A stretch of DNA of 63,637 nucleotides, the filler included, from Licmophora abbreviata (lineage: Eukaryota), in the NCBI GenBank assembly GCA_900291995.1. It is 20 parts of 20 records of this genome, joined end to end, with 100 filler letters (N's around TTAATTAATTAA, not from the genome) between each part and the next. Parts side by side here need not be neighbours in the genome. Positions count along the whole stretch, not along the records: positions 15,168 to 20,279 come from OLMU01006335.1; 19 more parts are not named here. One strand, 5' to 3'. Made by a program: the position numbers and the translations under genes. Positions 9,674-30,757 of this stretch are shown one piece after another. The notes under the pieces were generated by a model. That model did no database searches. It was not told the DNA's origin and saw only the letters and a program-made list of their open reading frames with translations. How positions within the stretch are numbered: the first letter of the stretch is position 1; the number at the start of each line of letters is the position of its first letter.

Positions 9674-9817
9674 CTACAACAAAAACAAAAAACAAAATNN
9701 NNNNNNNNNNNNNNNNNNNNNNNNNNNNNNNNNNNNNNNNNNTTAATTAATTAANNNNNNNNNNNNNNNNNNNNNNNNNNNNNNNNNNNNNNNNNNNNAT
9801 TTCCTCAACAAAGCAAG

Positions 9818-12800
9818 ATGGCTGACGACCCAGGAGGGGGCGCAGCCACCACAGGTGCGACAGGCGGAAACTCTCGCCGTCCAGGACGCAACCGTAACAG
9901 TTCCAATCGCCGCGGCAATCGAAACTCTTCGTCAATCGCGATAAAGGGCAAGACTGAAGCAATCAGTCAGCATGTGTACGACATCTCACCGAAGTACCGC
10001 AACACGTTCAACCGCACGACGGTCGAAATCGCCGGGTACATCGCCCGAACATTGCCAGGTGGTGGTGAGTTCCTCGATGCCATGAAACCAGACAATCTCG
10101 GTTTTCTTCCGCTCGATGACCCTCCATACCCTGAGAGCGGCGACCCAATGTCACTCGAAATCTGGAAACTCAGCATCAAGTCAGTTTTCAACAGACGGGA
10201 GAAACGCGCAGAATCCATGAAGCAAGCATTTGCCATCGTCCTTGGACAAGTATCCGAGGCACTGCAGGACCGTCTTGAAGCCGACGAATCGTTCGCATCA
10301 ATCCAGACATCATGTGATCTCATCGAACTTCTGACGTTGATCCGCCGCTGCATGCAAACTGGGTCAAGCAAAACCCAAGACATGCAAGCCCTACAAGAAG
10401 CTCAGGAGCGTCTCACTCTCTTCAAGCAGAGTCCCACTATGACGAATGCACGATTCCTCCAAAACTTCAACGATCTGGTACAGACATGTGAGCTCTATGG
10501 TATGTCTTTTGGGATTGAATCGTGGGAAGCCTTCCTTAACGTCGATCAATCAAGCGCCTCTGAGGCACAGATCGCCACTGCAAAAGAGAACGCACGAGAC
10601 AGCCACCTCGCCACACTTTTCCTACGGAAGTCTGATGACGGCCGGTACAAGGGTCTCAAGGCGGATATCCAGAATGCTTTCACACGCGGTTCCGATGAAT
10701 ATCCCAAGTCCATCACAGCAGCCTACGACTACCTTGTGAATTATGTCCCACCTCCTTATTATGGTGTGTCACACGACGAGCAACACGGTATGACTTTCGT
10801 CACGGACGAACAATCCGACACTCAGTCCGACCGTGGAGGACGTGGTGGTCGGGGCCGAGGACGTGGCTCTGGTCGAGGACGAGGGCGTGGAAGGAGCGGT
10901 AACCGCGGTCGACAAGATAGCACCCCGGGAACTGAAGAATCAGCCGCACATGTTGCAGATCAGCCGGACGAGACCCAGGATTCAGGCGACCAGACAACCC
11001 CAGCAGGCAATGATACTGTAGGAAACGATAATCTAGATCAGGATGATCAGTACGTTGACTACTGTAATCTAGCCAGGGCCGAGTCCTATCTCCAGTCTGC
11101 AGGACTCCCTAAACGTTGGCTCCTCCTTGACAGCTGTTCGTCCGCAACCATCATCTCTAATCCAAGTCTCCTTTCCAACATTCGAAAGTCAGAGACATCT
11201 CTCCCAGTCCGATCGCTCGGTGGACTTATTCACCTTGAGCACATTGCCGACTTTGGTGATTTCCCTGAACCAGTATGGTACCACCCGAATGGTATCGCCA
11301 ATATTCTATCCCTTTCGGACGTGTCAAAGCACTTTCGCGTTACCATGGATACCAACGAGTTCAACGGCCTCATCATCCACATCAACAGCGACACATTCCG
11401 CGTGTTTTCCAACTCTGCCAAGAACCTCTACCGGATTGACCTGAGTACAATGACAAACAGTGATGCCAGCCACTTTTGGGCTCCCACCATCGCTGCGGTC
11501 TCCCATCTGGAGACCGTCGAGGACATCAAGAAACTGTACCCTCGACGCCTATATGAACGGGCCATCCGTGCCCGCAAATTCCAAAACATCATCATGCGAC
11601 CGGGATCTCGCCAAATGAAGGACATTATCATCCCCCATATGCAGAACTGCCCCGTCACTAAAGCAGACATTGATGCTGCTGAGCACCTTTTCGGCCCCAA
11701 TCTTGGTGCCCTTCTTGGCCGTACCACTCGAACTACACCGGACCATGTTATTAATAATGTTGATCCGGTGCCCACCAACATCCTTCGAGTGCATCGTAAT
11801 CTCACGCTACTTATTGACATCATGTTCGTCAACAAGCTCCCTTTCTTTGTGACCATCTCCCGTCACCTCAAGTTTGGCACCATCGAGCCCCTCGACAATC
11901 GCCAGATTCCAACCATCGTGGCCAAGCTTCGCGCTGTTGTCAAACTCTACAATCAACGAGGCTTTAACATTAATGGCATATATGCTGACCACGAATTCGA
12001 GCCCCTGCGTGCTTCCTTTCCCCAGCTGAACACCGCAGCAGCCAATGAACATGTCCCCGAGATTGAACGCTTCATTCGCACGATTAAAGAGCGTACCCGG
12101 GCTGCCTACAACATGTTGCCCTACAAACACGTTCCCCGTCTCATGCTCCTTCACCTAGTTCGCAACGCCGTGTTCTGGCTTAACGCCTTCCCTCGCCAAG
12201 ACGGAATCTCCTCAGTCCATTCGCCCCGGTATATTCTAACTGGCCGCCATCTTGACTACAACAAACATGCCATCATTGAGTTTGGCGCTTACGTTCAAAC
12301 ACATGAAGAACACGACAACAGCATGGATCGACGCACGATGGGTGCCATTTGTCTTGGCCCCACTGGGAATGTTCAAGGTGGACATTGGTTCATGTCACTC
12401 ACATCCGGCTCGCGAGTCATTCGTTACCGCTGGACTCCCCTGCCCATGCCTACAGATGTCATCGTTCGCGTCTCTAACATGGGCCAGGCTCAAGGAATGC
12501 CCTCCACCGTCACATATTCAGATCGTGTCGGGCGGGAGCTCAGGAACAACCTCAACGAGATTGCCGACGATGCCTCACTTGACGACTCGACCTATGTCGA
12601 CGATGACATGTCCATCGCTTCCAGTGACTCTTCCCATCACAGCGACGACCAAAGTGCCACCGATGACAACAGCGCCGATGATGACGACAGCAGTGCCGGT
12701 GACGAAGACAGCAGCGATGATGATTACGACAGTGACGACGATCGCCCACCTGCAGGACTCCAACCCATGCTTGACGACCCTCTTGAGGCCCCTGTAGCGC

Positions 12801-15067
12801 CTCCTCATACCACAATCGGCACCGACACTCGTGTTGGCCCTCCCGAGGCCACAGGAGTGAATAACGTCTCACTGCCAAGAACAGGAGTGGACAATAATGG
12901 CCCAGTCGGAACAACAGGAGTGGAAGCATATCGCCCATTCGGAACAACAGGAGTGGAGGCAGATCGCCCAGTCGGAACAACAGGAGTGGAGGACCCTTTC
13001 GAAACCAACAAAACAGATGAGAGCACCGAGTATGACCAGGATGAGGTCTTTCCCAACAATGACGCCCCTGAGTATGACAATGAATTGGACAATATGAATG
13101 AGCAGGATGCAGCACATGTACCACTGGATACAACAGGAGTGGACATACCGGCAGCAAGAGGAGTTGAGACGCCCAATATCACCACCGATATCACCACCGA
13201 ATGGGAACGTTTCCAATCGGCAGTGCGACGAGGTGAAGACGCAGCAAATGACGACACCGAGCTTCCAAAACGCATCAGAAAACCAAAGACACTCGACAGC
13301 TTCCTCGCGACATTCTTCAACCGACCAGAATATGCCGTCGTCCCGGAGGAATGTTTCATCGCAGCAATCGCTCCCCATGCCGAAGAACTAATGAATTTCC
13401 TCACAGAACAAATGAATGCTAAAAAAGGACTGAAAGTATTCGGTGAGCGAGGTGTCAAGGCACTCAATACGGAACTGAAACAACTACTCACTCGGAAGGT
13501 AATGTTCCCAGTTGCAGCACAGTCGCTATCATATGAGGAGCGCATTGCTGCACTCAAATACCTCATGTTTCTCAAAGAAAAGCGATCAGGACAGCTAAAA
13601 GGTCGGGGGTGCGCAGACGGTCGAAAACAGAGAATCTACAAGACCAAAGAGGAGACATACGCTCCAACCGTCTCAACGGAAGCCGTGATTCTAACGTCCA
13701 TGATCGACGCAAGGGAAGGCCGGGATATTGCCATCGTTGACATCCCTGGAGCCTTTATGCAAGCCGACATTGACGAGATTGTACACGTGAAGCTCGAAGG
13801 AGACCTCGTCGATCTCATTGTCCGCCTGGACCCATCATATCAGGCATACATTACATACGAAGGAAAGAAACAGAACAGACGAAAGGTGATCTATACAAAG
13901 CTTACAAAGGCATTGTACGGAACAATGCAAGCCGCCTACCTTTTCTGGAAGAAGCTATCGTCATTCCTTGTCGAAAAGCTCGGATTCAAAATCAACCCAT
14001 ATGATTCATGTGTGGCAAACAAGACAGTAAATGGGAAACAGTGCACCATATGTTGGCACGTCGACGACCTAAAAATTTCACATGCATACTCGTCATGTGT
14101 CACCGGCATCATCAATGCTCTTCAAAAAGAGTTTGGAAAAGAAGCACCACTCACTGTGAAACGGGGAAAAGTATTCGATGACTACCTTGGAATGCATGTC
14201 GACTTCTCACAGACAGGAAAAGTCATCTTCCGAATGGAAGAGTACATCAATCAAGTAGTGACAGAGACTCCCGATGCGCTCATGCGAGGACCATGTTCGA
14301 CACCCGCCGGAAATCATTTGTTCCAAACAAACAAGAATGCAGTTCTTCTGAATGAAAAAGACAAGGAGCTATTCCATCACCTCACTGCAAAACTCCTCTA
14401 CCTATCGAAGCGAACACGACCAGACATCCAAACGGCAATCTCTTTCCTATGCACAAGAGTACAAGAACCAGACGAAGACGACCTGAAGAAGCTTGGGAGA
14501 TGCATCCGATACCTCTCAACTACCCGTACTCTCCCACTTACTCTTGAGTTTGATGGATCGGGAATCATTCGATGGTGGGTAGATGCCTCCTTCGCTGTAC
14601 ATCCCAACATGCGTAGCCACACTGGAGCGACCATGTCAATGGGAAAAGGAAGCCCGTTCTCTCTCTCCAGTAAACAGAAGCTCAACACTCGAAGCTCAAC
14701 AGAAGCCGAACTCGTAGGAGTGAATGATGCAATGGGACTCATCCTCTGGACGCGTAAATTCCTGGAAGCTCAAGGTCTAACAGTCATTGACAATATCATC
14801 CATCAAGACAACCAAAGCACGATGCTCCTCGCGAACAATGGGCGTCGATCAAGTTCCAAGCAAACGCGTCATATTGAAATCCGGTACTACTTCATCACCG
14901 ACAACATTCTGCGAAAACAATGCCGTGTTGATTATTGCCCAACCGAAGAAATGCGGGGTGATTTTTTCACCAAACCCCTACAAGGTAAATTATTCCTCAA
15001 ACATCGTGATGCTGTGTTAAACCTTTCCACTGGGCCATTGGTCGACGATACAGCACCGCAGGAGTGT
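9818..15067 (+). CDS. Copia Gag-Pol polyprotein, uninterrupted
   Basis: Protease LLDSCS; integrase IDIMF, ADHEF and EIER; RT DIPGAF, KALYG and HVDDL; RNase H VDASF, EAEL, QDNQS and GDFFTKPL. Confidence 0.92.
12851..13141 (+). repeat. Six ACAGGAGTG copies (TGV peptide), three within a 33-nt tandem repeat; putative central PPTs
   Basis: Copies start at 12851, 12881, 12914, 12947, 12980 and 13133 and match CAGGAGTG at the element's 3' end (15059-15066). Confidence 0.8.
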
Positions 15068-15214
15068 NNNNNNNNNNNNNNNNNNNNNNNNNNNNNNNNN
15101 NNNNNNNNNNNTTAATTAATTAANNNNNNNNNNNNNNNNNNNNNNNNNNNNNNNNNNNNNNNNNNNNATTATTTCAATAGAAACGAAAACCCAAAGCGTC
15201 GCTCGCTCAACCGA

Positions 15215-15562
15215 ATGGCAAAGACGAAGGATCCCGTTACAGAACTCATTGAACAGCTCGAGCAGCTCCGAGTCCAAGAGGGTGTCCTTCTACGCCGACT
15301 GGCAGCAGCCCGTAACGCCGAAACCCGACCTCCCGTGACATCGCCTGTCAACCTTTCCGCCCGTACCGGCGTCGAGTCTTTTCGCATTGGCGACACAGTA
15401 CGTGTGACCAACGAAGTGAAGTATCCTTTGTTCGGACGCACGGTTACGGAGCGGGACAGAGTGGGAACAGTCACCAAAGTCACGCCGAAGCGAGTACACC
15501 TGCGTACGATCAGCGGCGTGAACACGAACCGTGCCCCACAGAACCTCGTCCACCATGACTAG
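15215..15562 (+). CDS. Accessory ORF0: N-terminal coiled coil plus SH3/KOW-like beta domain
   Basis: 115 aa; homologous to 30241..30606 (FRIGDxVRxTN, GxVTxxTxxRxHLRTxxGxNTxRAPxNLV). The fold is inferred from the pattern only. Confidence 0.75.
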   Translation: MAKTKDPVTELIEQLEQLRVQEGVLLRRLAAARNAETRPPVTSPVNLSARTGVESFRIGDTVRVTNEVKYPLFGRTVTERDRVGTVTKVTPKRVHLRTISGVNTNRAPQNLVHHD

Positions 15563-18500
15563 CAATGATGCAGCTCAAGCGGGTGCCGCAGCCGGTGAGG
15601 CCGCCGGCACGGAGAGCGGAGTCCAGCAGACAGGTGGAGGCGGAGCGAACAACCAATCTCAGCGATCCAGCCGAAATGGACGCAACAAGTCGCGCTTCAT
15701 CCGTGGATCAGGAACAGAGAAGAAGAAAACAACTTTCAAAGGAAACACCGACGGAATGAATGCCCATGTTTTCCAAACATTCCAGGAGTCCGGAGACCCC
15801 CAACAGTTTGTCAAGACACTTGAGGCCCTCGCTGAGTATTCAGCCAAGAACCAAAAGCATGCAGGAGACCTGGCCACACTTTTCAAAACTCTTGAAGCCC
15901 CCACGATCCCTTTACCTGAAGAATTGTCAGAAGAAGAAGCAGAGAGCCGTTTGAAACTGGCCCTATGGCAGAAGGAGGTCGACGGTTATTACACGAGGAA
16001 AGGACACCTTGCCGGCAACCTCAAAGGCCTCCATGCCGTGACGTGGGGCCAGTGTAGCGAGGCCATGAAGGCCAAGGTCATGACCCTAGACGGGTACAGC
16101 GAAAGTGACGACACCAGTGACGTCTCCTGGCTCCTCAAGTCCATCCGTGGTGTTACCTACGGATTCGAGGGACAGAGATACATCTTCCTTGCGTTTGATG
16201 ATGCACTAACTGATTTCTATTCCTATCAACAGGCTCAGGATGAGTCTCTCTCGGATTACCTGCAGACTTTCAGGACAAAACTCGACATTTTGAAACATTA
16301 CGGCGGCGGCGACTCTATGGGCCAAGAGACGGCACTATTGAAGGCAGTACGGGATGGCCACCCTCGTTTGAGCCAAAGCGCCGCCTCTGCGTTTGCGAGC
16401 AATCGTGCTCAAGCCATTGCTTTCCTCAAGCGGGCCGATAGGCGTCGTTATGGCAGCCTCTTAGCAGATCTCGAGAATCAGTACTCGCGTGGCAACGACC
16501 AGTACCCTACCGATCTTTCTGGCGCCTACAGCCTCCTCGTTGGATACAAGGCTCCCCTTTCAGTCAAAGCCAAGGACAAAACCAGCGGCAACAACGGCAA
16601 CAAGGAGCGAAAGAACGACGCCACCGGTTCCAGCACTGAGATCGGCATGACATTTGCGCAGGCGGCAGCACTCGTGGCCGGCGACAACGGTATCACACAC
16701 CCGTGTATCAAATGCTACCGATGCAACTCACCCGGTCACTACGCCAACCACTGTCCCACTCCCAACACAGACAATGCTGGGGTGCAGCTCCTGCAAGCCG
16801 ATGCCACCTCGACGCCAACCTCGTCTTCCCCCTCCCAGAAACTTGATACCAGCGATGCAAATGACGCTTCCAACTTCTCGTTTGCCCAGGCCCGTCTCCA
16901 CGAAATTCCCGCTCCTTGGATTCTTCTTGACAGTCAGTCCACTGTCTCCATCTTCCGGAACCGAAACTATCTACACAACATCCGTCCTGCGAGCCGCCCC
17001 ATGAAAGTGTACACCAACGGTGGTACACAGGAGTCGCACCTCATTGGCGACGTGACCAATTTCGGCCCAGTGTGGTACAATCCTGATTCGCTCGCCAACA
17101 TCCTTTCCCTTGCTGAAGTCCGCAAGTTGTGTCGCGTTACCATGGACACCTCCGTTGAGCCCGCCCTCTGTGTCCACCGCCGCGACGGCTCCATCCTCAA
17201 GTTCCAAGAGTATGTGACCGGGTTGTATTTCCATGACGCTTCTAACAAAAATAGCTCCACCGTTACCCCGTACTCATTTCTGTCGACAGTAGCCGCCGAG
17301 AAAGCGCGTTTTACTCCCCGCGAAATTGCAGGAGCGGAAGCAGCTATGGTGTTGTACCGAAAAATCGGTCGTCCATCACAAAAAACGTTTCAGGAAATTC
17401 TACAGAAGAACCTCATCATAAATTGCCCCGTCACAGCCCAGGATGCCAAGCGTGCCCTAACCATCTACGGCCCGGATGTGGCAACTTTAAAAGGAAAGAC
17501 CACGAAGGGACCGTCTACACACGTTCCAAGCATCACCGTTTCCCCGCTTCCAGACGACATCCTACAGCGTCACGGTGACGTCACCATTTGCGGTGACATT
17601 TTCTACGTACAAGGAATCCCGTTTTTTCACACCATCTCAAGGAAGATTCAATTTCGAACGGTCGCAACTCTAAAGAACAGACAGCAAGCCACTCTTCTCC
17701 GTGAATCCAAGGCAATCATTGATCATTATCAGGCAAGAGGTTTCAATGTGACGAATTTTCACACGGACGGAGAATTTGAGTGTATCCGACACGACATTCT
17801 ACCCGCGATCCTAAACGTCACCGCTGCGGATGACCACGTCGGCGAAGTAGAGCGATCCATACGAACAATCAAGGAGCGCACCCGGTCCACCATTCATGGA
17901 TTGCCGTACAGACGCCTCCCCGTTTTGATGATCAAGGAAATCGTTAGGCATGCCGTGAAGAATTTGAACCTTTTTCCCGCCAAAAATGGAGTGTCGGCAA
18001 TTTTGAGTCCGCGAGCGATTGTGACAGGCTTCGCCAACCCCGACTACAACAAGCTGCAACTTGAGTTCGGTTCGTATGTTCAAGTTTTCGAGGATAACAA
18101 TCCCTCCCCAGGTACAAACTCCACTGCCACGCGAATGACCGGCGCCATATCCCTCAATCCCACGGGGAATGAGCAAGGCGACTACTACTTCATGTCACTG
18201 ACCACCGGAGCGCGTCTCAGTAGGCGACAGTGGACTCTGTTACCTATCACCACAGAGGTGATCAAAGCTGTGGAAGACATGGCCGCTGCGCAAGGACAGC
18301 CGCGGATTCACGGTGGCACGATGAAATACGAATGGCGGCCCAACATTGTGGTCGAAGACGCTGATGACGACGACGATGATGATCCCGATGATCCCGACAG
18401 TGACGATGAGATCACAGAAAACGAAATCGACGACGATAACGGTGACCCTATTTTCCTAAGTGACGGCCCCCCCACTGATGAGCTCGACGTTGACGACGAG

Positions 18501-20279
18501 GAAGCGATGGAGGAGAACACAGAGCAAGCCGAAGGAGCGCAGGAGATCGTCGACGATGATGAACACCCGAACGCAGATGAGGCGGTAGCGGCACACGCGG
18601 AAGACGCAGACGAGACGCAGGGAGATCCCGCGGACACGGCCGGTGACGAACAACATGGATACAACCTTCGAAATGACAGGACTCGGAGTTACCAACATCG
18701 GTACTCTCACCAGCTAGACGAAGGAGCGGGAACGGAACCCGAAACCACCGGCGTGCAGCTCCTCCAGAATGCGATTCACGAGCTGCCATCCGACCCACAA
18801 CCCCTCCGCTCACACGTTTTCGGCCAAGTGTTCACCCAGATGACGGCGAAGGCCGGTATCAAAAAGCACGGAAAGACCGCGGTTGACGCCCTATTCAAAG
18901 AATTTGCCCAGTTAGACGACAAGAATGTTTTCGAAGCAATGGATGCTACGAAGCTGTCAACCGACGAGAAGAAAGGCGCATTGAGAGCGGTGAATTTGAT
19001 AAAGGAGAAGCGTTCTGGGAAGCTGAAGGGCCGCACGTGTGCCGATGGCCGTCCACAACGTAACTTGTACACACGAGCAGAGACGACGTCCCCCACTATA
19101 TCGACGGACGCATTGATGATTTCGCTCATGATCGACGGTTTGGAACGCTGAGACGTGGCCACAGCCGACGTCGTCGGGGCGTACCTACATGCCGAGATGG
19201 ATGACTTTGTGTTGATGCGACTGACCGGAGAGGCCGTCGGTATCATTTGCGACGTGAACCCGAAGTACATTCCTTTTGTCACCATGGAGAACGGAAAAAG
19301 GACATTATACGTGCGGTTGCTCAAGGCGCTGTATGGTTGCGTGAAATCGGCTCTCTTGTGGTACGACCTTTTCGTGAACACTTTGAAGGATCGCGGTTTT
19401 GTAATCAACCCCTATGATCCGTGTGTGGCGAATTGCACGATAAATGGTAAGCAATGCACCATTGGCTGGTATGTGGATGATAATAAGATTTCGCATGTTG
19501 ACCCCGCCGTCGTGACCGAGATCATTGAATTGATCGAATCACGTTTTGGAAAGATGACGGTCACTCGCGGCAAACAGCACACGTTCCTAGGCATGGACAT
19601 CACGCTTAATGACGACGCCACTGTCACCATCTCGATGAAAGACTACATCCGTGAGGCTATCACAGATTTTGGCGAGGATGTGTCAAGAGCGGTCGCAACA
19701 CCTGCAGGCAAAGACCTGTTTGAAGTCGACACTGGCGCAGAACCCCTTGAAAAGTCCAGGAGCGAACTTTTTCACAGCATCGTGGCAAAGCTGTTGTATG
19801 TGTCCCAGCGAGGACGAAATGACATTTCCCCGACGATCGCTTTTCTGTGTACTCGCGTGTCGTGCAGCACGTATCAGGACTGGAAGAAATTGAAGCGACT
19901 TCTACAATATCTCAACGACACCATCAGTATGGCGTGTACGATCGGAGCAGACAACCTGTCGAGCCTGATGACCTGGGTGGATGCGTCATACGCCGTACAT
20001 GCCGATATGAAGAGTCACACTGGCGGTGCTTTATCGCTTGGTCGCGGGGCGATTATGTGTAAATCTACGAAGCAGAAACTGAACACAAAGAGCTCGACCG
20101 AAGCGGAGATTGTTGGCGCCAGCGATTACCTGCCGAACACGATTTGGGCCCGGATGTTTTTGGAATCCCAGGGCTACCAGATCCAACAGAACGTTTTCGC
20201 TCAGGACAACCAGAGTGCAATGCGTTTGGCCATGAATGGACGTTCCTCCGCGGGTCAGAAATCCCGTCACATCGATATA
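15555..20279 (+). pseudogene. Copia Gag-Pol with one premature TGA in RT
   Basis: ATG at 15555; TGA at 19149-19151 replaces the Arg of E-x-RDVATAD seen in sister elements; the frame continues afterwards. Confidence 0.85.
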
Positions 20280-20410
20280 NNNNNNNNNNNNNNNNNNNNN
20301 NNNNNNNNNNNNNNNNNNNNNNNTTAATTAATTAANNNNNNNNNNNNNNNNNNNNNNNNNNNNNNNNNNNNNNNNNNNNATGTACGTAATGAAGCCTGGA
20401 CACTTCATCC

Positions 20411-22671
20411 TCAATGATGACCACCTTGCTGCCCCAAGGCGTTCTCCAACTCATCGACAAGCTTCTGGGCCGTCTCGGGCAACGCCACAACACCCGATGC
20501 AGAAATATCGTTAAAATTCGTCTTGAACATCCACTGCAAGCAAAGCAAAGGAAGAATACATCAACGATGAGTAAGCTATAACTGGACCAGGCCAACAAAA
20601 AGACCGTGTTCGAGCGTACGGTATGACATACCTGATAGGCCAAGACCTTGAGTCCATCTTGAATGAACCAGAAGATTAAGCAATATATCCACACAAAAGC
20701 AAAGACACCCGTATCGTTTCGAAGGCCTTCCGTGAGAATGCCATCCGGTTCCGAAGTGGGCCAAAGGATGGAGAGAAGCGAAGATACGACAAGCGCGAGA
20801 GCACCTCCCAGCAAAAGAATGGGAGCAGGTTTGATCTTCCAAAAGAAGTGACGTCCCGTGCGGGCACTGAACAGAGTCAAAAAGTCCGACACTGATACTT
20901 TCAGGTAGATCGCCGTCGTGATTTGACCGTACTGCACTCCGTCCATTCCCAGCCCCATAAGAAAACCATCCGGATTCCAGCTGTCGAGCAAAAAGTAGAG
21001 CAACAAGAGTGAACTGAAGCAGGAGACGGCACCAAGAACCGAGCTGACTAGAAAAAGAACAGGCAGATTCCAGCGGTTGGGTGTAGGACTTGGCTCGGCA
21101 TAGTCGTAGGCGATGGTAATCAAAGTGCCATCATTCAAGAGAGTGATGAGCATCAGCATGATTACGGGCATGTGAAAGAATTCAGGCCACTCAAAGTCTT
21201 CATCCAAGTCATCCGGCTGGTCGTAGTCAACCGGATGAAAGGCAAAGATAGCAATGAAGAAGAAGAATAGCAGCTGAAGTGTCGCGGCGATTCGGTACGT
21301 GATAAAGTTGCTCATACGCTGAAAGATCTCCCGAGCAATAACAATACCGTGTATGATGGTCCCGAGTCCCTCTTGAGTCAACACAATATCCGCAGCAGCA
21401 CGAGCGGCATCCGTAGCTCCGGCAACAGCGATACCAATGTCGGCTCTCTTTAGAGCAGGCGCGTCATTCACACCTGGAATAATGCATAATGAGGAGATGT
21501 TGTTAGAAAAAGCAAACAATAGAGAGATCGAGCCAGCGGAATGGTGACCCCCCACGTACCGTCTCCAGTCATACCAACCGTCTGTCGCAAAGAGCAAAGC
21601 AATGTGGTATTAGCATTTGTAGAGTAGCAATCGATGTCATACCCGCACAGTTCAACTTACGTAGTTCATCTCTCGCAGGCACTCAACAATCAGGTACTTG
21701 TGTTCGGGGTAGACTTGGGCAAAGCCGTCAGCGACTAGACAAAGATCGCCATAATCCTTGCTGAGATTGACGGGCTTTGCGTTTGTCTCGGGATCGAGCG
21801 TGGGCAGCTTTTCCGCCGTGAAGATCTTGTCTCCTATCTCCAGCTGTAACGCTGTATTCCGAGCAATGAGCAAGTGGTCGCCGGTAATCATCTTGACCTT
21901 GACGCCATAGCTCAGAGCTTCTTTGATAGTTTGCTTGGTGTCGGGTCTCGGAGGATCCAAAAAGGTCAATAGCCCAATTATCTGCCAAACACCAGTGTCC
22001 ATATCAGAGCGAGCGACTGCCAGCGACCGAACACCCCTCTCACCAAGCCGAGCCACGTCGCGCTCAATAGTTTCGCGAACATCGGAGGCCGAGGGAGGCA
22101 GCAAACCTAAAATAACGTGCGGAGCTCCCTTGGACGTCTTGAAGGTCACGCCTGTTTCCTTGTTTCGAACAGTTCCTTCCGTCCGCTTGATCTGCGGGTC
22201 AAACGGAAGGTACTCAAGCTGTTCATATGGCTCCAAGAGCGACATGTTGACGGCACCAAGCGTCAGTCGGTCCAGTGCATCACGAGGAGGCTCTTTCCAC
22301 TTGGCGGCCATGGCGGCAAGCACGAGAACCGACTCTTGGTTCTCGCCTTCGCAATAAATGGGTGTGTCGTCTTGGAGCATCATCTTGTTCAACGTAAGAG
22401 TTCCGGTCTTGTCGGAGCAAAGAATAGACATGCCAGCCAGATCTTCAATGGCGGAGAGCTTTGCGACGATGGCGCCGTGCTTAACCAGCTTCTTGGACCC
22501 GATTGCCAAGGTTGTGGTAGTGACGATTTCAATAGCAAGAGGAATGCTTGCAACTAAGAGCACAATCGTAAAGGAGAGGGCTTCTTTCACATCGACTCCT
22601 TTGGCGAGTAGGTACGTCAAGTTTATGATACAAAGCACAAGCGACAAGCTCACGAGGACAAACATGATTGT
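20411..22671 (-). CDS. P-type (P3A) plasma-membrane H+-ATPase, central and C-terminal exons
   Basis: CSDKTGTLT, KGAP, DPPRPD, MITGD and spliced MTGDGVNDAPALK; GT-AG introns 21582-21660, 21474-21559 and 20534-20631; stop at 20413-20411. Confidence 0.93.
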
Positions 22672-22771: not shown

Positions 22772-23885
22772 GCGTTCATGCGTATTCTGGAGCAAGCTTG
22801 CCGTCTTTCCAAAGAAGGTATCGGCACCTGTAAACTCAACCGTCGCCTGGAAAAGACAAAAAAGTGCATGTCAGTCCAACCAAAAACCCACGACAGGCGG
22901 AACTCGTCTCGCTGTCGCTCGTTAGACTCACCTCGACCTCACCGCGCACGACCGTTGATCCCATCTTGCAAGAATCCCCCTGATAAAAGGTCACGGGCAA
23001 TGACTCTCCTGTCAAGGCCGCCTGATCCACATCAATTTCCGAGTGGTTGACTCGACAATCGGCCGGAATGGCCGACCCGCTGGCCAACAAGACAGTATCA
23101 CCGGGCACCAACAAAGCCGCATCCATATTCTGCCATTTACCATCTCGCTTGCATGTTGCCGTCGGCTTGAGACTTGACTTGAGCGCCGCAATAGCATTGC
23201 CGGCCTTGGTAGTTTCGTAAAAGCTAATGAATGCGTTGGTGAACTGAATGACAAGAAGAATGGCCATGTCCAGGTAGTTGGAAATACCTAGCTCGATAAT
23301 GACAGCAATCCAAATCATCACGGGCATGGGAGCTACAAACAAGAGACGCAAAAAGACGAGCCACAGGGGGTCTGCCTTTTCCGGCAGTTCGTTACGACCG
23401 TACTGCTCGAGGCGCAGTTCAGCTTCTTTCGAAGAGAGACCTTTGAGGTTATACTCAAACTTTTCAAAGTCTTCCTTTTCTTCGAGAATATCCTGAAAGT
23501 CTTTTTCCGTAATGCTGCCACTTTCACGTCGTTCACTTGCCGTACCGTAGATGCCGACATGGTCTGCGAATCTCAGATCGTCCTGCCGGAGAATGGTTGC
23601 TTGGGAGAACTTTGTCAAAACATCCGAAGAACTTTTCTGGCGGCGACGATGGTGATGGTCGTAGGGAAGGTACTTGGTCAGGACCATGTCGGAAATATCA
23701 GAGACTGCCTTTCCCCGTTGGCGACCTCGTGTTTCGTTTCCGACCATACCGGTGATATCGGAAGCAACCTTTCCTCGGGGGAGCTCCACCTGGTGAAGCG
23801 AAGAAGCAATCGTGTCGAGGGCTTCTTCCTCGTCGACATCCTCGACATCATCTTGATTCTTGGGCGGCGGATCGTTGAAGCTCAT
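22772..23885 (-). CDS. P3A H+-ATPase N-terminal exons, probably the same gene as 20411..22671
   Basis: GLSSKEA-YGRNEL, LVPGD, IPADC and DQAALTGES; removing intron 22847-22931 restores GEVEATVEFTGADTFFGKTA. Confidence 0.9.
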
Positions 23886-24177
23886 GGTGCTAGAAGAGAG
23901 ACCTCAAAGAGAAGATTGTAATAGAGAAGTCTGTTGTGGAAATCGATCGAAGCATGCATACACGCAGATTGTGAGAGTACTCGTAGTGTTCTCATCCTGA
24001 GGCCATTCAAAGGCGAAGCCAGGCCATTGCGAGCTCGCAAATAATGGTCTCAGGGACTCTTTGCAAAATTTCGGAGTTATGTATTTTGGCCAAACTCTCT
24101 GTTCAAAATAGTCGATTTTTGGACTGTTTTCCATTCGTGGAATCGCCAGCAGTTTTTTGGCGATGATTGGCGATCAA

Positions 24178-24289
24178 CGGAAAATCGGAAACCGAGATCG
24201 GAATCGGAAAAAGAGACCCGGAAATCGGAGACCGAAATCGGAAATCGGAAAAACGAACCCGGAAATCGGAAACCGAGATCGGAAATCGG
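24178..24289. repeat. Degenerate tandem repeat of an approximately 7-nt unit (CGGAAAT-like)
   Basis: Repeated GGAAATC, GGAAACC and GAGATC units run to the contig edge, upstream of the ATPase. Confidence 0.85.
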
Positions 24290-24914
24290 NNNNNNNNNNN
24301 NNNNNNNNNNNNNNNNNNNNNNNNNNNNNNNNNTTAATTAATTAANNNNNNNNNNNNNNNNNNNNNNNNNNNNNNNNNNNNNNNNNNNNCCCCAGAGAAT
24401 TGCACAGCCACGACTTGACAAACCAGTAAGGAACCCTTCCGTCGTCATCCGACAGGGCTACCGGTATGCTCACGTTCTAGTGCTCTATCGCATGTCACGC
24501 GGAGGCAAGAAACCCGTCGTCGTGCCTCACGTCCTCTTGAGCAGTTCTTATGTGAAAATCTCCGAAAATCTCCTCTTTCAAGAATCCCTTCATGTAATGT
24601 TTGAGAAACGATGTAAGTAACTTAGCCGAAGCGACATATTGTAAATATCTTTAAAACGTGCCTTAGATCTTTGTGATAGCACGGAACGTCTTACCACGCG
24701 CAGAACGCCGAACGACAGAAACAAAATCCTACTAGAGTTCGTACTCGTACGTTTTCTCACATCTTTTTTTCTTTCAAAGATCCAAATCTAAATCTGAAGT
24801 TGAAGGGTATCAGAGCGTACTCGTACCGGTAGTACGTGTATCGTATCTAGCTAGAAGCTCCTGAAGAAGTCATCCCGACATAAAGTCATCTCAGACTCTC
24901 TTTCTTAGAGTGCC

Positions 24915-25607
24915 ATGAAGCTCTTCATTCCCTTTGTGTATCTTGTGTCGTCGCTCACGACTGTTGCTGCCGCTCGCGAGTTGCAGGCCACATGTGTGGC
25001 TGACACGGCCGCCCAAGGTGCCGCCAACCCGACTTTGGCGGGTTATCGGACGACCTACAACGACATTATAATTTCAAACATTGAAACTCTCTGCCTTGAC
25101 GACAATGGCGAGCTTGATGCTTGTCTTGCTACCGCCGGTACACCTACGCTTGACGGGTCTGGCCTTGTGGACAAATTCTATACGGAATGCGTGGCGGTAG
25201 GCGGATCCGGCTGGACGTACGATGTAACTTTTGAATGTGGGCACACCGAAGTTCAAGAATACGACAAACTCTTCTTTTGTATGGACGGCGACTGTGACTC
25301 GACTGGAGCTTCCGAGATTGCCGCGACGCTCAACGGCATTCTCGGTGCCCCCTTTGACGCGGCCGGATATACCTGCGATTATACGCAAAGCAACCTCGAG
25401 GCTTTCGGGTTGCGGCCCGCATGTGTTGCTGACACGGCCGCCCAAGGTGCGGCCAACCCGGACATGGCGGCAGATAGGACGACCTACAACAATTTCATTA
25501 CTGGGTCCATTGAAGCCAACTGCTTTACTGCAAATGGCGAGCTTGATGCTTGTCTTGCTACCGCCGACACACCTACGAGGGTTAGGGTTAGGGTTAGGGT
25601 TAGGTAG
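24915..25607 (+). CDS. Secreted Cys-rich protein with a 143-aa internal repeat, truncated
   Basis: Signal-like MKLFIPFVYLVSSLTTVAAA; CVADTAAQGAANP...NGELDACLATA recurs with a 429-nt period (24991 and 25420); the second unit runs into telomere repeats. Confidence 0.7.
   Translation: MKLFIPFVYLVSSLTTVAAARELQATCVADTAAQGAANPTLAGYRTTYNDIIISNIETLCLDDNGELDACLATAGTPTLDGSGLVDKFYTECVAVGGSGWTYDVTFECGHTEVQEYDKLFFCMDGDCDSTGASEIAATLNGILGAPFDAAGYTCDYTQSNLEAFGLRPACVADTAAQGAANPDMAADRTTYNNFITGSIEANCFTANGELDACLATADTPTRVRVRVRVR
25578..25604 (+). repeat. Telomeric (TTAGGG)n tract, about 4.5 units
   Basis: AGGG TTAGGG TTAGGG TTAGGG TTAGG. Confidence 0.9.
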
Positions 25608-25721
25608 CTCGCGCTAATACCNNNNNNNNNNNNNNNNNNNNNNNNNNNNNNNNNNNNNNNNNNNNTTAATTAATTAANNNNNNNNNNNNNNNNNNNNNNN
25701 NNNNNNNNNNNNNNNNNNNNN

Positions 25722-28700
25722 TTTACACATGACTGCGCCCCGGCCCAACGACAATGCACCGCCTGTGTGGCTGCGCATGTCGAAATGTACGGCATACGCC
25801 GCATCCACCCAGGTTCGCAACACTCCGAGGTCATCAGCCCCAATGGTACGCACATCGTCAATCGTTCCCTTCACATATTGCAAAACCCGCTTCAGTTTCG
25901 ACCAATCCTGTGTTGTGCTGCATGACACCCGCGTCGTGAGGAACGCCACTGCTGTAAGCAAATCGGGACGTCCCCGCTGTGAGACATAAAGTAACTTCGC
26001 CACCACGCTATGAAAAACTTCCGCATCCTTCTGACCAAGTGGGGTGGCGCTCTTGTCAACCGCGAATAGTCCTTTGGCTCCTGGTGTGGTCGCAGTCCGA
26101 GCCACCGGCTCCCCAAAATCGTGTAGCGCTTCGACCAAGTACTCCTGCATGCCGATTGTAACAGTCCGGTCATCGTTGAACGTAATGTCCATCCCTAGGA
26201 ACGTGTGCTTCCGTCCTCTGGTCACCGACATTTTCCCGAATTTGGACTCGATGTCGTCTATAATTCCTGTCACCACGTCCGGGTCCACGTGTGAAATCTT
26301 GTTGTCGTCGACGAACCAGCCGACGGTGCACTGCTTTCCATTGATGTCACAGTTTGCCACGCACGGGTCGTATGGGTTCAACACAAACCCTCGCTCCTTT
26401 AGAGTGCTAGAGAACAACTCATACCATAGTAGTGCGGATTTCACGCATCCGTACAGTGCCTTCAGCAACTGTACATACAGCGTGTCCCTCCCATTCTCAA
26501 CTGTGACGAATTCCTTGTACTTGGGGTCAACCGACTGCAGTATGTTCACTGCTTCCCCTGTCAACTTCAACACGACGAAATCGTCCATGTCTGCGTGCAA
26601 GTACGCTCCTTCAACGTCGGCAGTTGCCACGTCTCTACCTTCGTGTGCATCGATCATCAGGGACAACATGAGGGCGTCATTCGAGATGGTGGGGGATGTT
26701 GTCTCTGCGCGCGCGTAGAGTGTCTTCTGCGGTCTACCATCTGCGCACGTCCTCCCTTTCAGGGTCCCATTCCTCTTTTCCTTGATCAGATTGATTGCTC
26801 GTAGCGCCTTTGTTCGCTCCTCTCTACTCAGGCTCGCCGCTGAAACTGGCTTGAAAACGCCTTTGTCGTTCAATTGGGCGAACTCCTTGAACATCGCGTC
26901 GATGGCTGCCTGCCCATGTTTCCGTATCCCTGCTGTCGCGGTCATCTGCGTCATCATGTGCCCACACACATAACGATGCACTGCTTCACTGTCCTCGTCA
27001 AGGTCATTGAAAGCTTCCTGCAGCAACTGTACCCCGGTCTCGTAACTGTGCCGGTCGCTCGATGCATCCATTTGGTTCGCAAGACGGTGGTTGTAGTTTC
27101 GCTCCCTGTTCGGCCGCAGATTGTAGTGACCCACTTCCGGGTTCCCTCCATCAGGGGCGTGGTCATCCACGACTGGTGCTACCGCCTCAGCCCCACCCGC
27201 TCCTTGATCTAAACCGGGTGCAATGTCTTCCTGATCCACTTCGTCGTTCGCTCCTTGGTTCAAACCGAACTCGAGGGCGCCCATAGCCATATTCGCTCCT
27301 TCTTCTTCGCCGGGTTCAGCAGCCGCTTCCGGTCCCTCGATTTGGACTGCGACGTCGTCCTCAAGCATCTCGATCTCTACTGGGTACTCCTCGTCGCCGG
27401 TCCCGTGTATCAGTGCCTCCCCCTCGACCGTGCCTCCATCGAAACCGTCTGGTGCGTCGTCTGCAGTTTCCACTATGGGGAGTCCTGGTTGCCACTCGAA
27501 CGCGAGGGACGATCCCACTATCAGTGGCTGTCCCTGCGCTTCGGCCAGTTGTTCTACCCGCTCGATCACATCCGTCGTGATCGGTAGTTCGGTCCACTTG
27601 TTTCGCGTAAGCCTCGCACCGGTGGTGAGTGACATGAAGTGGTAGCTTCCCTGACTGTTCCCTGTTGGATTTAGTGCGATCGCTCCTGTCATTCGAGTGG
27701 CCGTGGTGTTCGTTGGGTAGTTCTCTTCAAAAACCTGCGCGTAAGCACCGAATTCCAGTTTGAGGTTGTTGAAATCCGGGTTTGCGCTTCCTGCGACTAT
27801 CGCCCGGGGACTCATTGTATCCGACACTCCGTCTTTCGGCGGGAAAAGATTTAGGGACGTGTTCGCGTCCTCCACGATGCCCCTGATCATGATTCCTGGT
27901 AGTCTCTTGTACGGTAGCCCGTGTACCGTGCACCTGACCCGTTCCTTCACCGTCCTGATGGAGCGCTCTACCTCTCCGACGTGTGTGTCTGCTGCTGTGA
28001 TGTTCATGGTAGTCGGCAGGACCTCCGCACGTAAACACTCGAACTCTCCATCGGTGTGCAGGTCGGGGATCTCGAAGCCTCGCGCCTGGTAAAGGTCCAT
28101 CACCGCCCGCGTATGTTTCAGTAAGGTCGCCTTCTGTCTGTTCGGGATCTGTGCCACTGTCCGGAATTTAATCTTCCTTGATACTGTATGGAAGAAAGGC
28201 AGTCCCTGTACGTAGAAAAGGTCCATGCATAACGTGACCTGCTTGTGGTGCTCCAAAATGGGTGCTGGTAGTAGTGTCGGGATGGTGGTTGGGGCGTGCG
28301 TCGGCCTCCCCCGAGTCGTCTTTCCTTTTAGTGTCGCCACATCCGGTCCGTATATGGCGAGTGCCCGCTTCGCGTCGGCCACCGTGACTGGGCAATTGTT
28401 GATCATGTTCCCGATTAATGCTTTCTCGAATGTCTCCTGGGACGGCCGCCCTAGCTTCCGGTACAGTGCTCGTGCCTTATCCGCTCCTGAAATTTCGGCG
28501 TTGGTGAAGATCGACTGGTTTGTGGCTACGGATTGTAGAAAACTGTAGGGGGAAACGGTCAAGTTAGAAGTTAAATCCGCCGTGTCGTGAAAGTAGAGGC
28601 CGCTCGTGTACTCCCTGAAAGCCATGATCGTCCCGTTTCGTCGATGAACATGGAGAGCCGCGTCGACCGCTGTGTCCATGGTCACCCGGCACTGCTTCCG

Positions 28701-30248
28701 CACAGCTGCCAACGAAAGGATGTTGGCGAGTGAGTCCGGGTTGTACCATACAGGGCCAAAATTTGGGAGATCACCGATCTCCGTGGACACCTGAGTCCCG
28801 CCGTTCGTGAACACCTTGAGGTGTTGTTTGCTGGGACGGATATTGCGCAGCAACTCCCTGCTGCGGAAAACGGACACCGTGGATTGGGAGTCAAGTAACA
28901 CCCACGAATGTGGGATGAGGGTGTTACCACTCTGCGCAAAAAAGAACGCCGGTTCTCCTCCCGTCCCGTCACCGCCCGATTGAGTGTCCTCCCCTCCTGT
29001 GCTCCCATGCGCCGCCTGCAATAGCTGCACACCACTTGCCGCTTCACGGCCGGTGGAGGCAGTCTCTCCGGGATCGGTCCCCGATCCGCCGGTGCCGGTG
29101 CCGCCCTCAGTTCCACTGGGGCACTTATCCGAGTAGTGACCTGTCTTGCCACATGTGAAACACGTCACGCCGTTTCGCTTTAGGACGCCGTCCGTGCCGG
29201 CGACTCCGCCAGCCTGCGCGAAGGTCATCCCGATGACATCCCGGGGCCGGTGAGTTTGTCCCTGCCGCTGTGGGGTCGCCGACTTCCACATCACCAAGTA
29301 GTTGTAAGCCGCGGGGAGGTCCTTGGGGTACTGGCCATTTTCGCGTGAGTGTTGGTTCTCCAGCTCGGTCCAAAGTGCCCTGTACCTGGTCGGGTCGGCA
29401 CGCTTCAAGAACGCGATTGCCAGCGCCTGATCGCGCGACGCCTTGAGGACTGCGTCCTCCTCCATGGGGGCCCCCGGCTGGGACATGATGTTCGTGAGCA
29501 AGGCCGGATCGTGGCCGAAAGAGCCACCGTAGTACTCCAGGACCTCGACCTTCGACTTGAAGTTCTGGAAGTACGTCGCGTTCGTTTCGTGGGGCCCCTG
29601 GAGGTAGGAGTAAAGCGCAGTTTTAGCTTCGTCAATCCCGACGAAGATGTACCGCTGACTCTCAAAGTTACTTGTGATCCCGCGGATCTCCTTAAGAAGC
29701 CAACTCAAATCCTGTGTTGCGTTTCCTGCCTCGTAGCCTCCGGTCCCCATCAGCTTCGAGCGCATCGCTTCACTGCACTGTCCCCAGGCAATGGCATACA
29801 TTGCCTTCATGTTACTGTCCAACTGATCGACCCTGCGGCAGTACGAGGCAACGGCCTTCTCGAAGATGAGGACTTTCAGTCGATTCGTCTCCGTCTCGGG
29901 CAGGTCCGCTGGTTCCGCTATCGTCGGCTTTTCAAGGTTCGCGAAGAAACCCGCAATGTCGCCCGGGAAGTCCTGCTCCTTTGCCGAGTACTCCTTGAGC
30001 ATGTCGATTGTCCGCTGGAACTGTTGGGGATCCGTCTGTTCGCCGAATACCTGGAACACGTGCCCGTTCATCTTCTCCGTGCTTCCCTTGAAAGTCGCAG
30101 CCGGCGTCACCGACCCGGTGCCTCTGTTTCGACCACCGTATCCACTACGTCCACCTCCTCGGCGGGGGGCTCCCCGCCCCCCTCGGCCGCCCCGGCCTTC
30201 ACTTGTTCGACCCGTGCCAGCGGTGTCCGTGGTGTTCGACTCACTCAT
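25722..30248 (-). CDS. Copia Gag-Pol polyprotein, open to the contig edge
   Basis: CFTCGKTGHYSDKC, LDSQS, integrase MDLF, TDGEF and EVER, RT DVEGAY, KALYG and FVDDN, RNase H WVDAAY. Confidence 0.92.
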
Positions 30249-30606
30249 GGGTTCGCACTAGATTGTGTGGTGCCCTGCTGGTGTTGTTTCCACGGTCAGT
30301 CCTGAGGTGGATGCGTTGTGCAGTGATACGAGTCACCACTCCGTTTGCGTCGCTCGGGTTTGCCGACGGTACGCCGAGAGATGTCCGGACGCGATTGGTG
30401 ATCCGCACTCGGTCGCCAATCCTGAAAGCGCTCACGCCTTCTGCCGTCCTCGGTCGTGTTCCTGTCCCTGGTGTCCCACCAGTTCCGATGTTTCTACCTT
30501 GATCCTCTCCGATCTCCCTCACTCGAACGATTTGTCGGATGATCCTTGACTCCTCCAGACGAAGAACTTCTAGTTGTTTGAGCAGATCGTCGATTTCGTT
30601 CGTCAT
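30241..30606 (-). CDS. Accessory ORF0 homolog
   Basis: 121 aa, homologous to 15215..15562; overlaps the gag ATG by 8 nt (ATGAGTGA). Confidence 0.75.
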   Translation of the reverse strand: MTNEIDDLLKQLEVLRLEESRIIRQIVRVREIGEDQGRNIGTGGTPGTGTRPRTAEGVSAFRIGDRVRITNRVRTSLGVPSANPSDANGVVTRITAQRIHLRTDRGNNTSRAPHNLVRTHE

Positions 30607-30757
30607 GTATCGTCAGAGAAATGACGGGGTAAAATGAATCCTTTTCGCTTGAAATAANNNNNNNNNNNNNNNNNNNNNNNNNNNNNNNNNNNNNNNNNNN
30701 NTTAATTAATTAANNNNNNNNNNNNNNNNNNNNNNNNNNNNNNNNNNNNNNNNNNNN

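Follow-up and report, generated by a model that had tools for sequence, protein, structure and literature searches.

ORF0, a conserved accessory gene located 5' of gag in a clade of Ty1/Copia retrotransposons

The standard picture of a Copia element is one with two genes (gag-pol). Our analysis of a 63,637-nucleotide stretch of DNA from Licmophora abbreviata (assembly GCA_900291995.1; hereafter the window) revealed an additional short open reading frame (ORF), ORF0, directly 5' of gag in two Copia elements, referred to as element 1 and element 2. ORF0 is an element-encoded accessory gene of a Ty1/Copia clade; it is conserved at the protein level and encodes a protein of ~115 amino acids (aa) with a predicted long helix followed by a basic barrel of the SH3/KOW-like fold class. 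Several described systems resemble it in part.

First, the P2 proteins have been described as a family combining a coiled coil with nucleic-acid binding, whose ORF directly precedes that of the polyprotein (PMC10885806). According to the same account, P2 of badnaviruses and tungroviruses is small, like ORF0 (123 aa in sugarcane bacilliform virus, SCBV); it has a self-interacting coiled coil and a nucleic-acid-binding C-terminal part, both of which are proposed for ORF0, and the P2 proteins share little sequence similarity among themselves. Both P2 and ORF0 immediately precede the capsid(-protease)-reverse transcriptase ORF of an element that relies on reverse transcription. In badnaviruses and tungroviruses the upstream ORFs are reported to be free of internal AUGs, with the polyprotein reached by leaky scanning (PMC5902531), a pattern similar to that proposed for ORF0, and the virion-associated protein (VAP) P3 of cauliflower mosaic virus (CaMV) is placed on the virion surface in PMC5670102. 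In contrast, the nucleic-acid-binding part of P2 is a short Pro/Lys-rich tail, whereas the corresponding part of ORF0 is predicted to be a folded SH3/KOW-like barrel; and the Caulimoviridae infect plants and combine ribosome shunting with long leaders, whereas ORF0 belongs to Copia elements and follows a short, ATG-free leader. By analogy, ORF0 may at most be called P2/VAP-like in function, and it is not assignable as a member of this group.

Second, the additional ORFs of LTR retrotransposons are, like ORF0, kept across copies of a family besides gag-pol, and the rice element Retrosat2 also has an 'ORF0', stated to be of unknown function (PMC3485330); in the account cited it is reported from no other organism, whereas the ORF0 described here occurs in hundreds of diverged clusters. 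The additional ORFs (aORFs) of plant elements are described as located mostly between pol and the 3' long terminal repeat (LTR), in sense (env-like) or antisense orientation (PMC7264820), and the ORF3s of a bdelloid study as located downstream of pol (PMC5408684). Compared with the plant aORFs, ORF0 lies 5' of gag, in sense orientation, and encodes a non-membrane protein.

Third, ORF0 resembles ORF1p of LINE-1 and other non-LTR retrotransposons, as the probable first cistron of a bicistronic retroelement RNA and in the proposed order of its parts, a coiled-coil oligomerisation module (a trimer in ORF1p) followed by a basic nucleic-acid-binding domain. ORF1p has an RNA recognition motif and a C-terminal domain and replaces Gag, whereas ORF0 is added to a full Gag with a CCHC knuckle; the two share no sequence similarity. 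ORF1p has been described as an RNA-binding protein (PMC3894237). Finally, the pattern GD-x-V-x-I ... G-x-V is common to ORF0, the KOW domains of Spt5/NusG, and the ribosomal proteins eL14 and bL19, and the ORF0 profile has weak matches to the latter two (E 0.09-0.6). ORF0 differs from these KOW proteins by an insertion of 12-15 residues between strands 1 and 2, and has neither an NGN domain nor a ribosomal context.

Full-text literature searches gave no account of a conserved coiled-coil/SH3-like ORF preceding gag in Copia elements; the 'ORF1' listed ahead of the polyprotein ORF in CoDi elements of diatoms (Maumus et al., 2009) may be the same gene or a separate gag. Neither a Pfam family nor a name in the source databases was found, in agreement with the preliminary description of this DNA, made from the sequence alone, which had regarded ORF0 as an undescribed accessory protein.

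The ORF0 family and its position 5' of gag

Both ORFs named in the preliminary description are present in the window (Table 1), with the lengths and the motifs reported there (ELIEQLEQLRVQE / DLLKQLEVLRLEE; FRIGDxVRxTN ... NTxRAPxNLV). Their products, ORF0-1 and ORF0-2, are 37% identical over ~110 residues (BLASTP, E 1e-21), and in tblastn searches of the whole window each matched itself and the other only (E 8e-18 and 3e-17), all remaining matches having E>0.6. The window consists of 20 separate contigs, so there is no physical linkage between features on different contigs, and elements 1 and 2 lie on different ones. Their gag-pol products are 51.5% identical over 1195 aa and thus belong to two diverged elements. 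Both contain a zf-CCHC domain upstream of RVT_2 (E 8.4e-11 in element 1 and 6.9e-15 in element 2), and the region between these domains aligns to other Copia polyproteins, as in members of Ty1/Copia.

A word-index search with ORF0-1 retrieved a single relative (P0001, 52% identity). A three-sequence profile, searched against 1.84 billion representatives, matched 742 clusters at E<=1e-3, of which 197 reached E<=1e-10 and 3 reached E<=1e-30. Among the best 150 of the 742 matches, 145 proteins were at most 200 aa long and 132 matched the profile end to end. The full helix-plus-barrel layout was found in 212 of the 233 proteins retrieved, with a median length of 118 aa (range 97-189). A second word-index search with a 77-sequence alignment yielded 92 proteins, all unnamed or annotated as 'hypothetical protein', encoded mostly on contigs of 0.5-6 kb, and none with a precomputed Pfam domain. 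No Pfam family scored above its cutoff in an hmmscan of the 77 aligned members, the commonest weak matches being to families of small barrels: MS_channel_2nd (17 of 77), NHase_beta_C (12), SH3_15 (11), ProQ C-terminal-like (10) and KOW (4). A protein-atlas search gave unnamed clusters only, with scores (0.81-0.83) below the reliability mark. Longer fused forms of ORF0 were looked for and none was found, which is weak evidence.

Scanning of JGI metagenome contigs with a seven-sequence alignment identified six true relatives from three lineages (L001; L002; L003-L006). Several other matches were rejected as family members: L007:8034-8402 is a bacterial rplS/bL19 gene downstream of a trmD-like gene, matched through FRVGDTVRV, and L008, L009 and L010, from scans of viral contigs and prokaryote genomes, are partial barrel-like matches with a small-barrel resemblance. 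The bL19 protein of L007, an SH3-like ribosomal protein, has the same opening-strand motif as ORF0.

Together with the two window elements, DNA is thus available for five lineages, and in all five ORF0 is located directly 5' of a Copia gag; the downstream gag N-terminal regions in the L001-L006 loci align with those of the window elements. The distance from the ORF0 stop to the gag start is -8, -8, +24, -4 and +11 nucleotides (nt) in element 1, element 2, L001, L002 and L003-L006, respectively, and the frame of gag relative to ORF0, in the same order, is +1, +1, 0, +2 and +2. ORF0 thus stops 8 nt inside the gag-pol ORF in both window elements; the overlap in L002 is 4 nt (ATGA), and the gaps of 11 nt (L003-L005) and 24 nt (L001) both contain stops. 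The gag of L001 is truncated after 93 aa. Given these offsets and intervening stops, there is no conserved frameshift fusion to Gag; the possibility that ORF0 is a frameshifted or read-through N-terminus of Gag was rejected, and ORF0 stands as a gene separate from Gag, as had been proposed.

Close copies reveal strong purifying selection on ORF0. L003 and L005 differ by 10 synonymous and one nonsynonymous changes (dN/dS ratio omega 0.03), L004 and L005 by eight and one (omega 0.04), and L003 and L004 by two and none. In 18 of 18 deep pairs the proportion of synonymous differences (pS 0.69-0.81, saturated) is above that of nonsynonymous ones (pN 0.24-0.47). ORF0 is conserved at least as well as the N-terminal 200 aa of gag (39-64% vs 27-50% identity). 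Between element 1 and L002, the identity is 57% for ORF0 and 27% for the gag N-terminal region, the ORF0 of element 1 being closest to those of L001 and L002 (55-57%); between elements 1 and 2, the respective values in this comparison are 41% and 48%. Such a mismatch in similarity rank could reflect exchange of the module between Copia lineages or unequal rates. The preliminary description had taken the protein-level conservation as a sign of selection, and both of the checks it suggested agree: omega (~0.03) is far below 1, and intact homologs are numerous. That ORF0 is a genuine selected gene is very likely.

Parts of the element occur in public runs whose labels name marine or coral-reef metagenomes. 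Near-identical contigs across parts of ORF0 occur in one run that may be of RNA; it is not used as evidence of expression. One marine metagenome DNA contig spans positions 15254-15625 with two differences, one of them synonymous in ORF0 (15379 T>G, Ser55); this run may be the window's own source, and the contig is not counted as independent support.

A stop at 19149-19151 breaks the pol of element 1, whose coding sequence resumes in a different frame from 19152 (region 19149-19196), at a point where element 2 reads straight through (IDAHEGRDVATADVEGAYLHADMDDF). Element 1 may be a decayed copy, or the break may be an assembly error; its ORF0 is intact. According to the preliminary description, ORF0 is missing from two other Copia elements of the window, at 9799 and 30758. 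Indeed, none is present on their contigs; these begin 19 and 33 nt, respectively, before the gag ATG and so leave no room for ORF0, the sequence further upstream lying outside them, and the statement holds for the contigs only.

The LTRs lie outside the window contigs, and the alignment of the upstream leaders was too poor to place the LTR end or a primer-binding site. Three Copia contigs open with similar words (ATTATTTCAA, TTATTTCAA and ATTTCCTCAACA at 15168-15180, 30645-30657(-) and 9799-9815, respectively), and in L005 a related word, TTATTCCTCAGCTCAACA, occurs ~60 nt before ORF0. The inner edge of the LTR is the probable point at which the assembly breaks. In three loci a Copia pol ends ~158 nt upstream of the ORF0 ATG, the interval being ATG-free (L004:340-499, L005:976-1134, L006:1308-1465). 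It could be either an unusually short LTR with a primer site, or a result of contigs running through a collapsed LTR, tandem copies or circles. Upstream of ORF0, only ~100 nt are common to L001 and L002.

Table 1. Features of ORF0 and its host elements in the window
Feature	Position	Strand	Remarks
Leader of element 1	15168..15214	+	contig start to ORF0 ATG, 47 nt, ATG-free
ORF0 of element 1	15215..15562	+	115 aa; ATG context AACCGAATGG, C at -3
Helix of ORF0-1, residues 7-37	15233..15325	+	long, amphipathic; predicted antiparallel dimer interface
Barrel of ORF0-1, residues 56-113	15380..15553	+	basic, five-stranded, SH3/KOW-like (model)
8-nt overlap ATGACTAG	15555..15562	+	gag start codon and ORF0 stop codon
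gag ATG of element 1	15555	+	context TCCACCATGA, A at -3
Copia gag-pol of element 1	15555..20279	+	CCHC knuckle, RVT_2; runs off contig end
Leader of element 2	30607..30657	-	51 nt, ATG-free
ORF0 of element 2	30241..30606	-	121 aa; ATG context CGATACATGA, T at -3, A at +4: weak
Barrel of ORF0-2, residues 61-117	30256..30426	-	aligns with ORF0-1 residues 56-112
8-nt overlap ATGAGTGA	30248-30241	-	gag start codon and ORF0 stop codon
Copia gag-pol of element 2	25722..30248	-	CCHC knuckle, RVT_2; frame open to contig end
RVT_2 Copia elements	9799-15067, 15168-20279, 25722-30657, 30758-35653

Predicted fold, charge and self-association

The AlphaFold2 model built from the 77-sequence alignment (mean predicted local distance difference test score, pLDDT, 85) contains a helix (residues 7-37, pLDDT ~95), a low-confidence linker (38-51) and a five-stranded barrel (56-113, pLDDT 81-95, with the strands in 61-113). 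The top structural matches are Spt5 KOW domains (Z 7.6, root-mean-square deviation 1.4 Å over 48 residues with 25% identity; Z 7.6, 1.8 Å over 53 residues); the barrel matched Spt5 KOW2-3 and DSIF KOW6-7 (Z 7.6 each) and NusG KOW (Z 7.0-7.1), followed by the Tudor domains of PHF19, TDRD3 and SMN (Z 6.2-7.2), PWWP (7.0), UBE2O SH3 (6.8-7.1) and Mind bomb REP (6.3). The model is thus an SH3-like five-stranded barrel superposable on the KOW domains of Spt5/NusG, with Z values in a range common for small barrels; the matches suggest a fold class for the barrel and nothing more. The SH3/KOW-like domain of the preliminary description is recovered in the model and its structural matches.

Other searches were less informative. 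With a first, shallow model, Foldseek gave no match in PDB at E<=0.001; the ORF0 profile matched PDB sequences with nothing better than E 0.09; and a BFVD structure search gave one match at E<=0.001, an unnamed phage protein. Pfam KOW (PF00467) stayed below its gathering score (13.6 vs 22.3 bits for ORF0-1), with E<=1 in 4 of 77 members (best E 0.0052). Mind bomb REP repeat SH3_15 (PF18346) matched weakly in 11 of 77 members (best E 3.2e-4), and hhalign of the ORF0 family against P0061, which has nine repeats, returned a probability of 13% (E 0.002). P0061, P0002, P0029 and P0034 are long proteins with 6-17 tandem SH3_15 domains, one of them with a TRIM coiled coil. Such repeat proteins match the ORF0 profile through many weak stretches (17 in P0002); the barrel may derive from them distantly, or they may simply share the motif GD-x-V-R-V, and at most a fold class is common to them and ORF0.

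Conserved positions are located in both parts of the protein: L11, I12, L15, L18, E22 and L29 in the helix core, and G59, D60, R61, V62, I64, T65, N66, D81, R82, V86, T87, R93, V94, T98, G101, T104, R106 and N110 in the barrel. R61, R82, K88, R93 and R106 are conserved basic positions, the last of them found in 77 of 77 members. The net charge of the barrel is +6.4 on average and is positive in 129 of 130 members with a motif-locatable barrel start (median isoelectric point, pI, ~11); that of the N-terminal part averages -1.45. An aromatic cage is not conserved, as only positions 56, 95 and 105 are aromatic in at least 60% of the 77 members; both window copies have N or S in place of W105, and position 56 looks like a core residue.

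The homodimer prediction scored 0.32, compared with 0.00 for the best control; the runs agreed in at least 83% of contacts, with a partner pLDDT of at least 73. The dimer mark applied here is reached by 21 of 30 solved one-chain pairs and by 0 of 23 solved single chains; for eukaryotic proteins it is reached in 17 of 29 cases, but in only 1 of 7 without an older solved relative. The predicted interface is formed by the helix (residues 7-36) in antiparallel orientation, with contacts 12-29, 18-25 and 22-22. The modelling thus supports a possible self-association of ORF0 through the helix. Of the heptad-like helix proposed initially, the helix itself is predicted with high confidence, and oligomerisation through it has the support of the model only.

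Access to gag and proposed function

Between the ORF0 ATG and the gag ATG, no further ATG occurs in any frame in element 1 (337 nt), element 2 (355 nt), L002 (320 nt) or L003-L005 (350 nt). Mononucleotide shuffling gives expectations of 3.7 (element 1) and 4.4 (element 2), with probabilities of zero ATGs of 0.02 and 0.0065, respectively, and the adjoining gag-pol contains 5.6-6.2 ATGs per 340 nt. Internal methionine is correspondingly rare in the ORF0 family, amounting to 30 of 25,964 residues (0.12%), and is missing from 193 of 218 members. The leaders upstream of ORF0 are ATG-free as well. The base at -3 of the ORF0 AUG is C, T, C, C and A in the five lineages, i.e., a pyrimidine in four, and three of the five lack both a purine at -3 and G at +4. 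For the gag AUG, a purine is found at -3 in four of five lineages. In RTBV (rice tungro bacilliform virus) and badnaviruses, ORFs I and II are described in similar terms, with no internal AUGs, weak starts, and the polyprotein ORF reached via leaky scanning (PMC5902531).

Leaky scanning from ORF0 to gag is a probable and well-supported explanation of this arrangement, judged from the sequence. ORF0 would be the first cistron of the full-length element RNA; scanning ribosomes would reach its AUG first, and only part of them would initiate in the weak context. The remaining ribosomes would scan through the AUG-free ORF0 and initiate at the gag AUG, at most 25 nt from the ORF0 stop, and the process would set the ratio of ORF0 to Gag-Pol. 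The product, in which a flexible linker would join a putatively self-associating helix to a strongly basic SH3/KOW-like barrel, could bind element RNA or cDNA and/or decorate the Gag particle. Nucleic-acid or particle binding is the likeliest function we can suggest, tentatively and short of an even chance. Among the functions named in the preliminary description (an oligomeric nucleic-acid or chromatin binder, an anti-silencing factor, a copy-number regulator), a basic nucleic-acid binder would fit best. What the analysis establishes is that the gene exists and is conserved, together with its position, fold class, charge and scarcity of AUGs. On the whole, we think it likely, with somewhat less assurance than for leaky scanning taken by itself, that ORF0 is an accessory protein gene in first-cistron position and that gag is reached mainly by leaky scanning.

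Several points weigh against this reading. First, synonymous recoding of ORF0 predicts only 0.9-2.0 out-of-frame ATGs, so that their depletion alone is not significant (P 0.08-0.78) and the AUG signal at the DNA level rests mainly on the missing methionine codons. Second, the start contexts are not uniform: the gag AUG of element 2 has C at -3, G at +4 is found in no gag AUG, and L001 has A at -3 of its ORF0 and three ATGs inside or after it. L001 may be a decayed copy, given its truncated gag. Third, the tight stop-start spacing fits termination-reinitiation equally well. Fourth, the structural matches are middling (Z<8, the range which the tool calls common) and concern the barrel only, and a fold is not a function; the dimer score lies exactly at the mark, was obtained without an alignment, and does not distinguish a dimer from a trimer or tetramer. 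Fifth, no sequence or fold link to caulimovirid P2 or P3 was found among the top 50 BFVD matches. Finally, genomic context is known for only five lineages among the hundreds of clusters, and ORF0 is known here from DNA, its expression being inferred.

Among the alternatives, termination-reinitiation survives best, although we hold it to be unlikely. In this scheme, similar to those of caliciviruses, Cryphonectria hypovirus 1 (CHV1; UAAUG) and some non-LTR retrotransposons, ribosomes finishing ORF0 would restart at the adjacent gag AUG, the gene and the protein being the same. The ORF0 stop and the gag AUG are less than 25 nt apart in five of five lineages and overlap in three (ATGACTAG, ATGAGTGA and ATGA in L002), and caliciviruses and non-LTR retrotransposons offer documented cases of reinitiation behind long ORFs (PMC5902531; PMC2699510). 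However, it needs neither an AUG-free upstream ORF nor a weak upstream start, and both are present here. Moreover, only two of five lineages have, in the 130 nt before the gag AUG, the sequence TGGGA, which we take to be the 18S-complementary pentamer of motif 1 of the termination upstream ribosomal binding site (TURBS); this is a weak test, as the motif is one of animal viruses. Leaky scanning and reinitiation could also act together.

With regard to function, the barrel could instead bind chromatin or the transcription machinery, by reading histone marks or by mimicking the contacts of Spt5/NusG KOW, and so direct integration, tether the element or oppose silencing. The structural matches (Z 6-7.6) include Tudor, PWWP, chromo-barrel and SAWADEE readers along with Spt5/NusG KOW, and stramenopile retroelements have repeatedly acquired reader domains: CoDi-A elements are described as having a chromodomain on the integrase (PMC2774666), and a Gypsy integrase of Ectocarpus carries a Tudor domain, reported as the first in a transposable element (PMC12477816). 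These known reader domains, however, sit on the integrase and not in a separate first cistron. The 77 members lack the conserved aromatic cage of a methyl-lysine reader, conservation on the surface of this domain of pI ~11 concerns Arg, Asn, Thr and Asp residues, and the Pfam KOW score is below its cutoff, all of which makes such a role quite improbable.

It is very improbable that ORF0 serves self-restriction or dosage control, either by impairing Gag assembly or by throttling Gag-Pol through its own translation. An ORF0 in first-cistron position necessarily draws ribosomes away from gag; in Ty1 a small element-encoded protein (p22/p18) is reported to restrict the element (PMC4551931); and transposition may not require ORF0, as none is found on the contig of the related element at 9799. 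Yet a pure translational throttle needs no conserved protein, whereas ORF0 has an omega of ~0.03 and a fold kept over hundreds of clusters, and Ty1 p22 is a fragment of Gag, to which ORF0 has no similarity. Two further origins were discarded: a captured host fragment is ruled out by the breadth of the family and its constant position, and a chance ORF or a peptide-independent upstream ORF by purifying selection and the intact homologs.

Other contents of the window and implications

The contigs of the window are 1.2-5.4 kb long, with a GC content of 0.49-0.62, and are joined by spacers of the form N44-TTAATTAATTAA-N44 (e.g., 15068-15167 and 30658-30757); ORFs reading into X residues are artefacts of these spacers. 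Diverse retrotransposons are abundant in the contig set. Apart from the Copia elements, there are an RVT_1 reverse transcriptase fragment (2293-4242(-)) and integrase fragments (57337-58293(-) and 62228-63637(-)), with an rve integrase core and an Integrase_H2C2 domain (Gypsy-like). A plasma-membrane H+-ATPase, of the plant/fungal/protist type, is encoded in consecutive pieces on contigs 20380-22671 and 22772-24289, one with Cation_ATPase_N and E1-E2 ATPase domains and the other with the C-terminal membrane part (nearest PDB entry AHA2, E 2e-35); the latter contig terminates in a GGAAATCGGA-like tandem repeat. Near the end of contig 24390-25621, positions 25578-25604 contain (GGGTTA)4, a repeat of the telomere type (TTAGGG), with 17 unrelated bases after it. 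The ORF at 24915-25607 runs into this repeat, which is translated as RVRVRV. Together with the labels of the public runs, these contents point to a fragmented assembly from a marine, non-animal eukaryote.

A wider claim would be that ORF0 represents a widespread unnamed class of retrotransposon 'virion-associated' proteins, in which the strategy of pararetroviruses (a small coiled-coil nucleic-acid binder on an AUG-free first cistron, with leaky scanning) either evolved independently or is shared by descent or exchange in the Copia elements of marine protists, the module moving between Copia lineages. We consider it distinctly unlikely. In a bolder version, the KOW-like barrel would engage the host ribosome or Pol II and not the nucleic acid of the element.

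A third gene is thus present 5' of gag in Copia elements; purifying selection on it is strong, and its diverged relatives, hundreds in number, are listed in databases only as short hypothetical proteins. If it encodes a particle-associated binder and gag is reached by leaky scanning, an accessory function would be added to the retrotransposition cycle of abundant elements of marine protists, and natural leaky scanning over a long ORF in eukaryotes would be extended beyond plant pararetroviruses. The profile of ~110 positions would then also provide a simple marker with which to annotate this clade of Copia elements, in fragmented metagenomes as well as in the genomes of algae.

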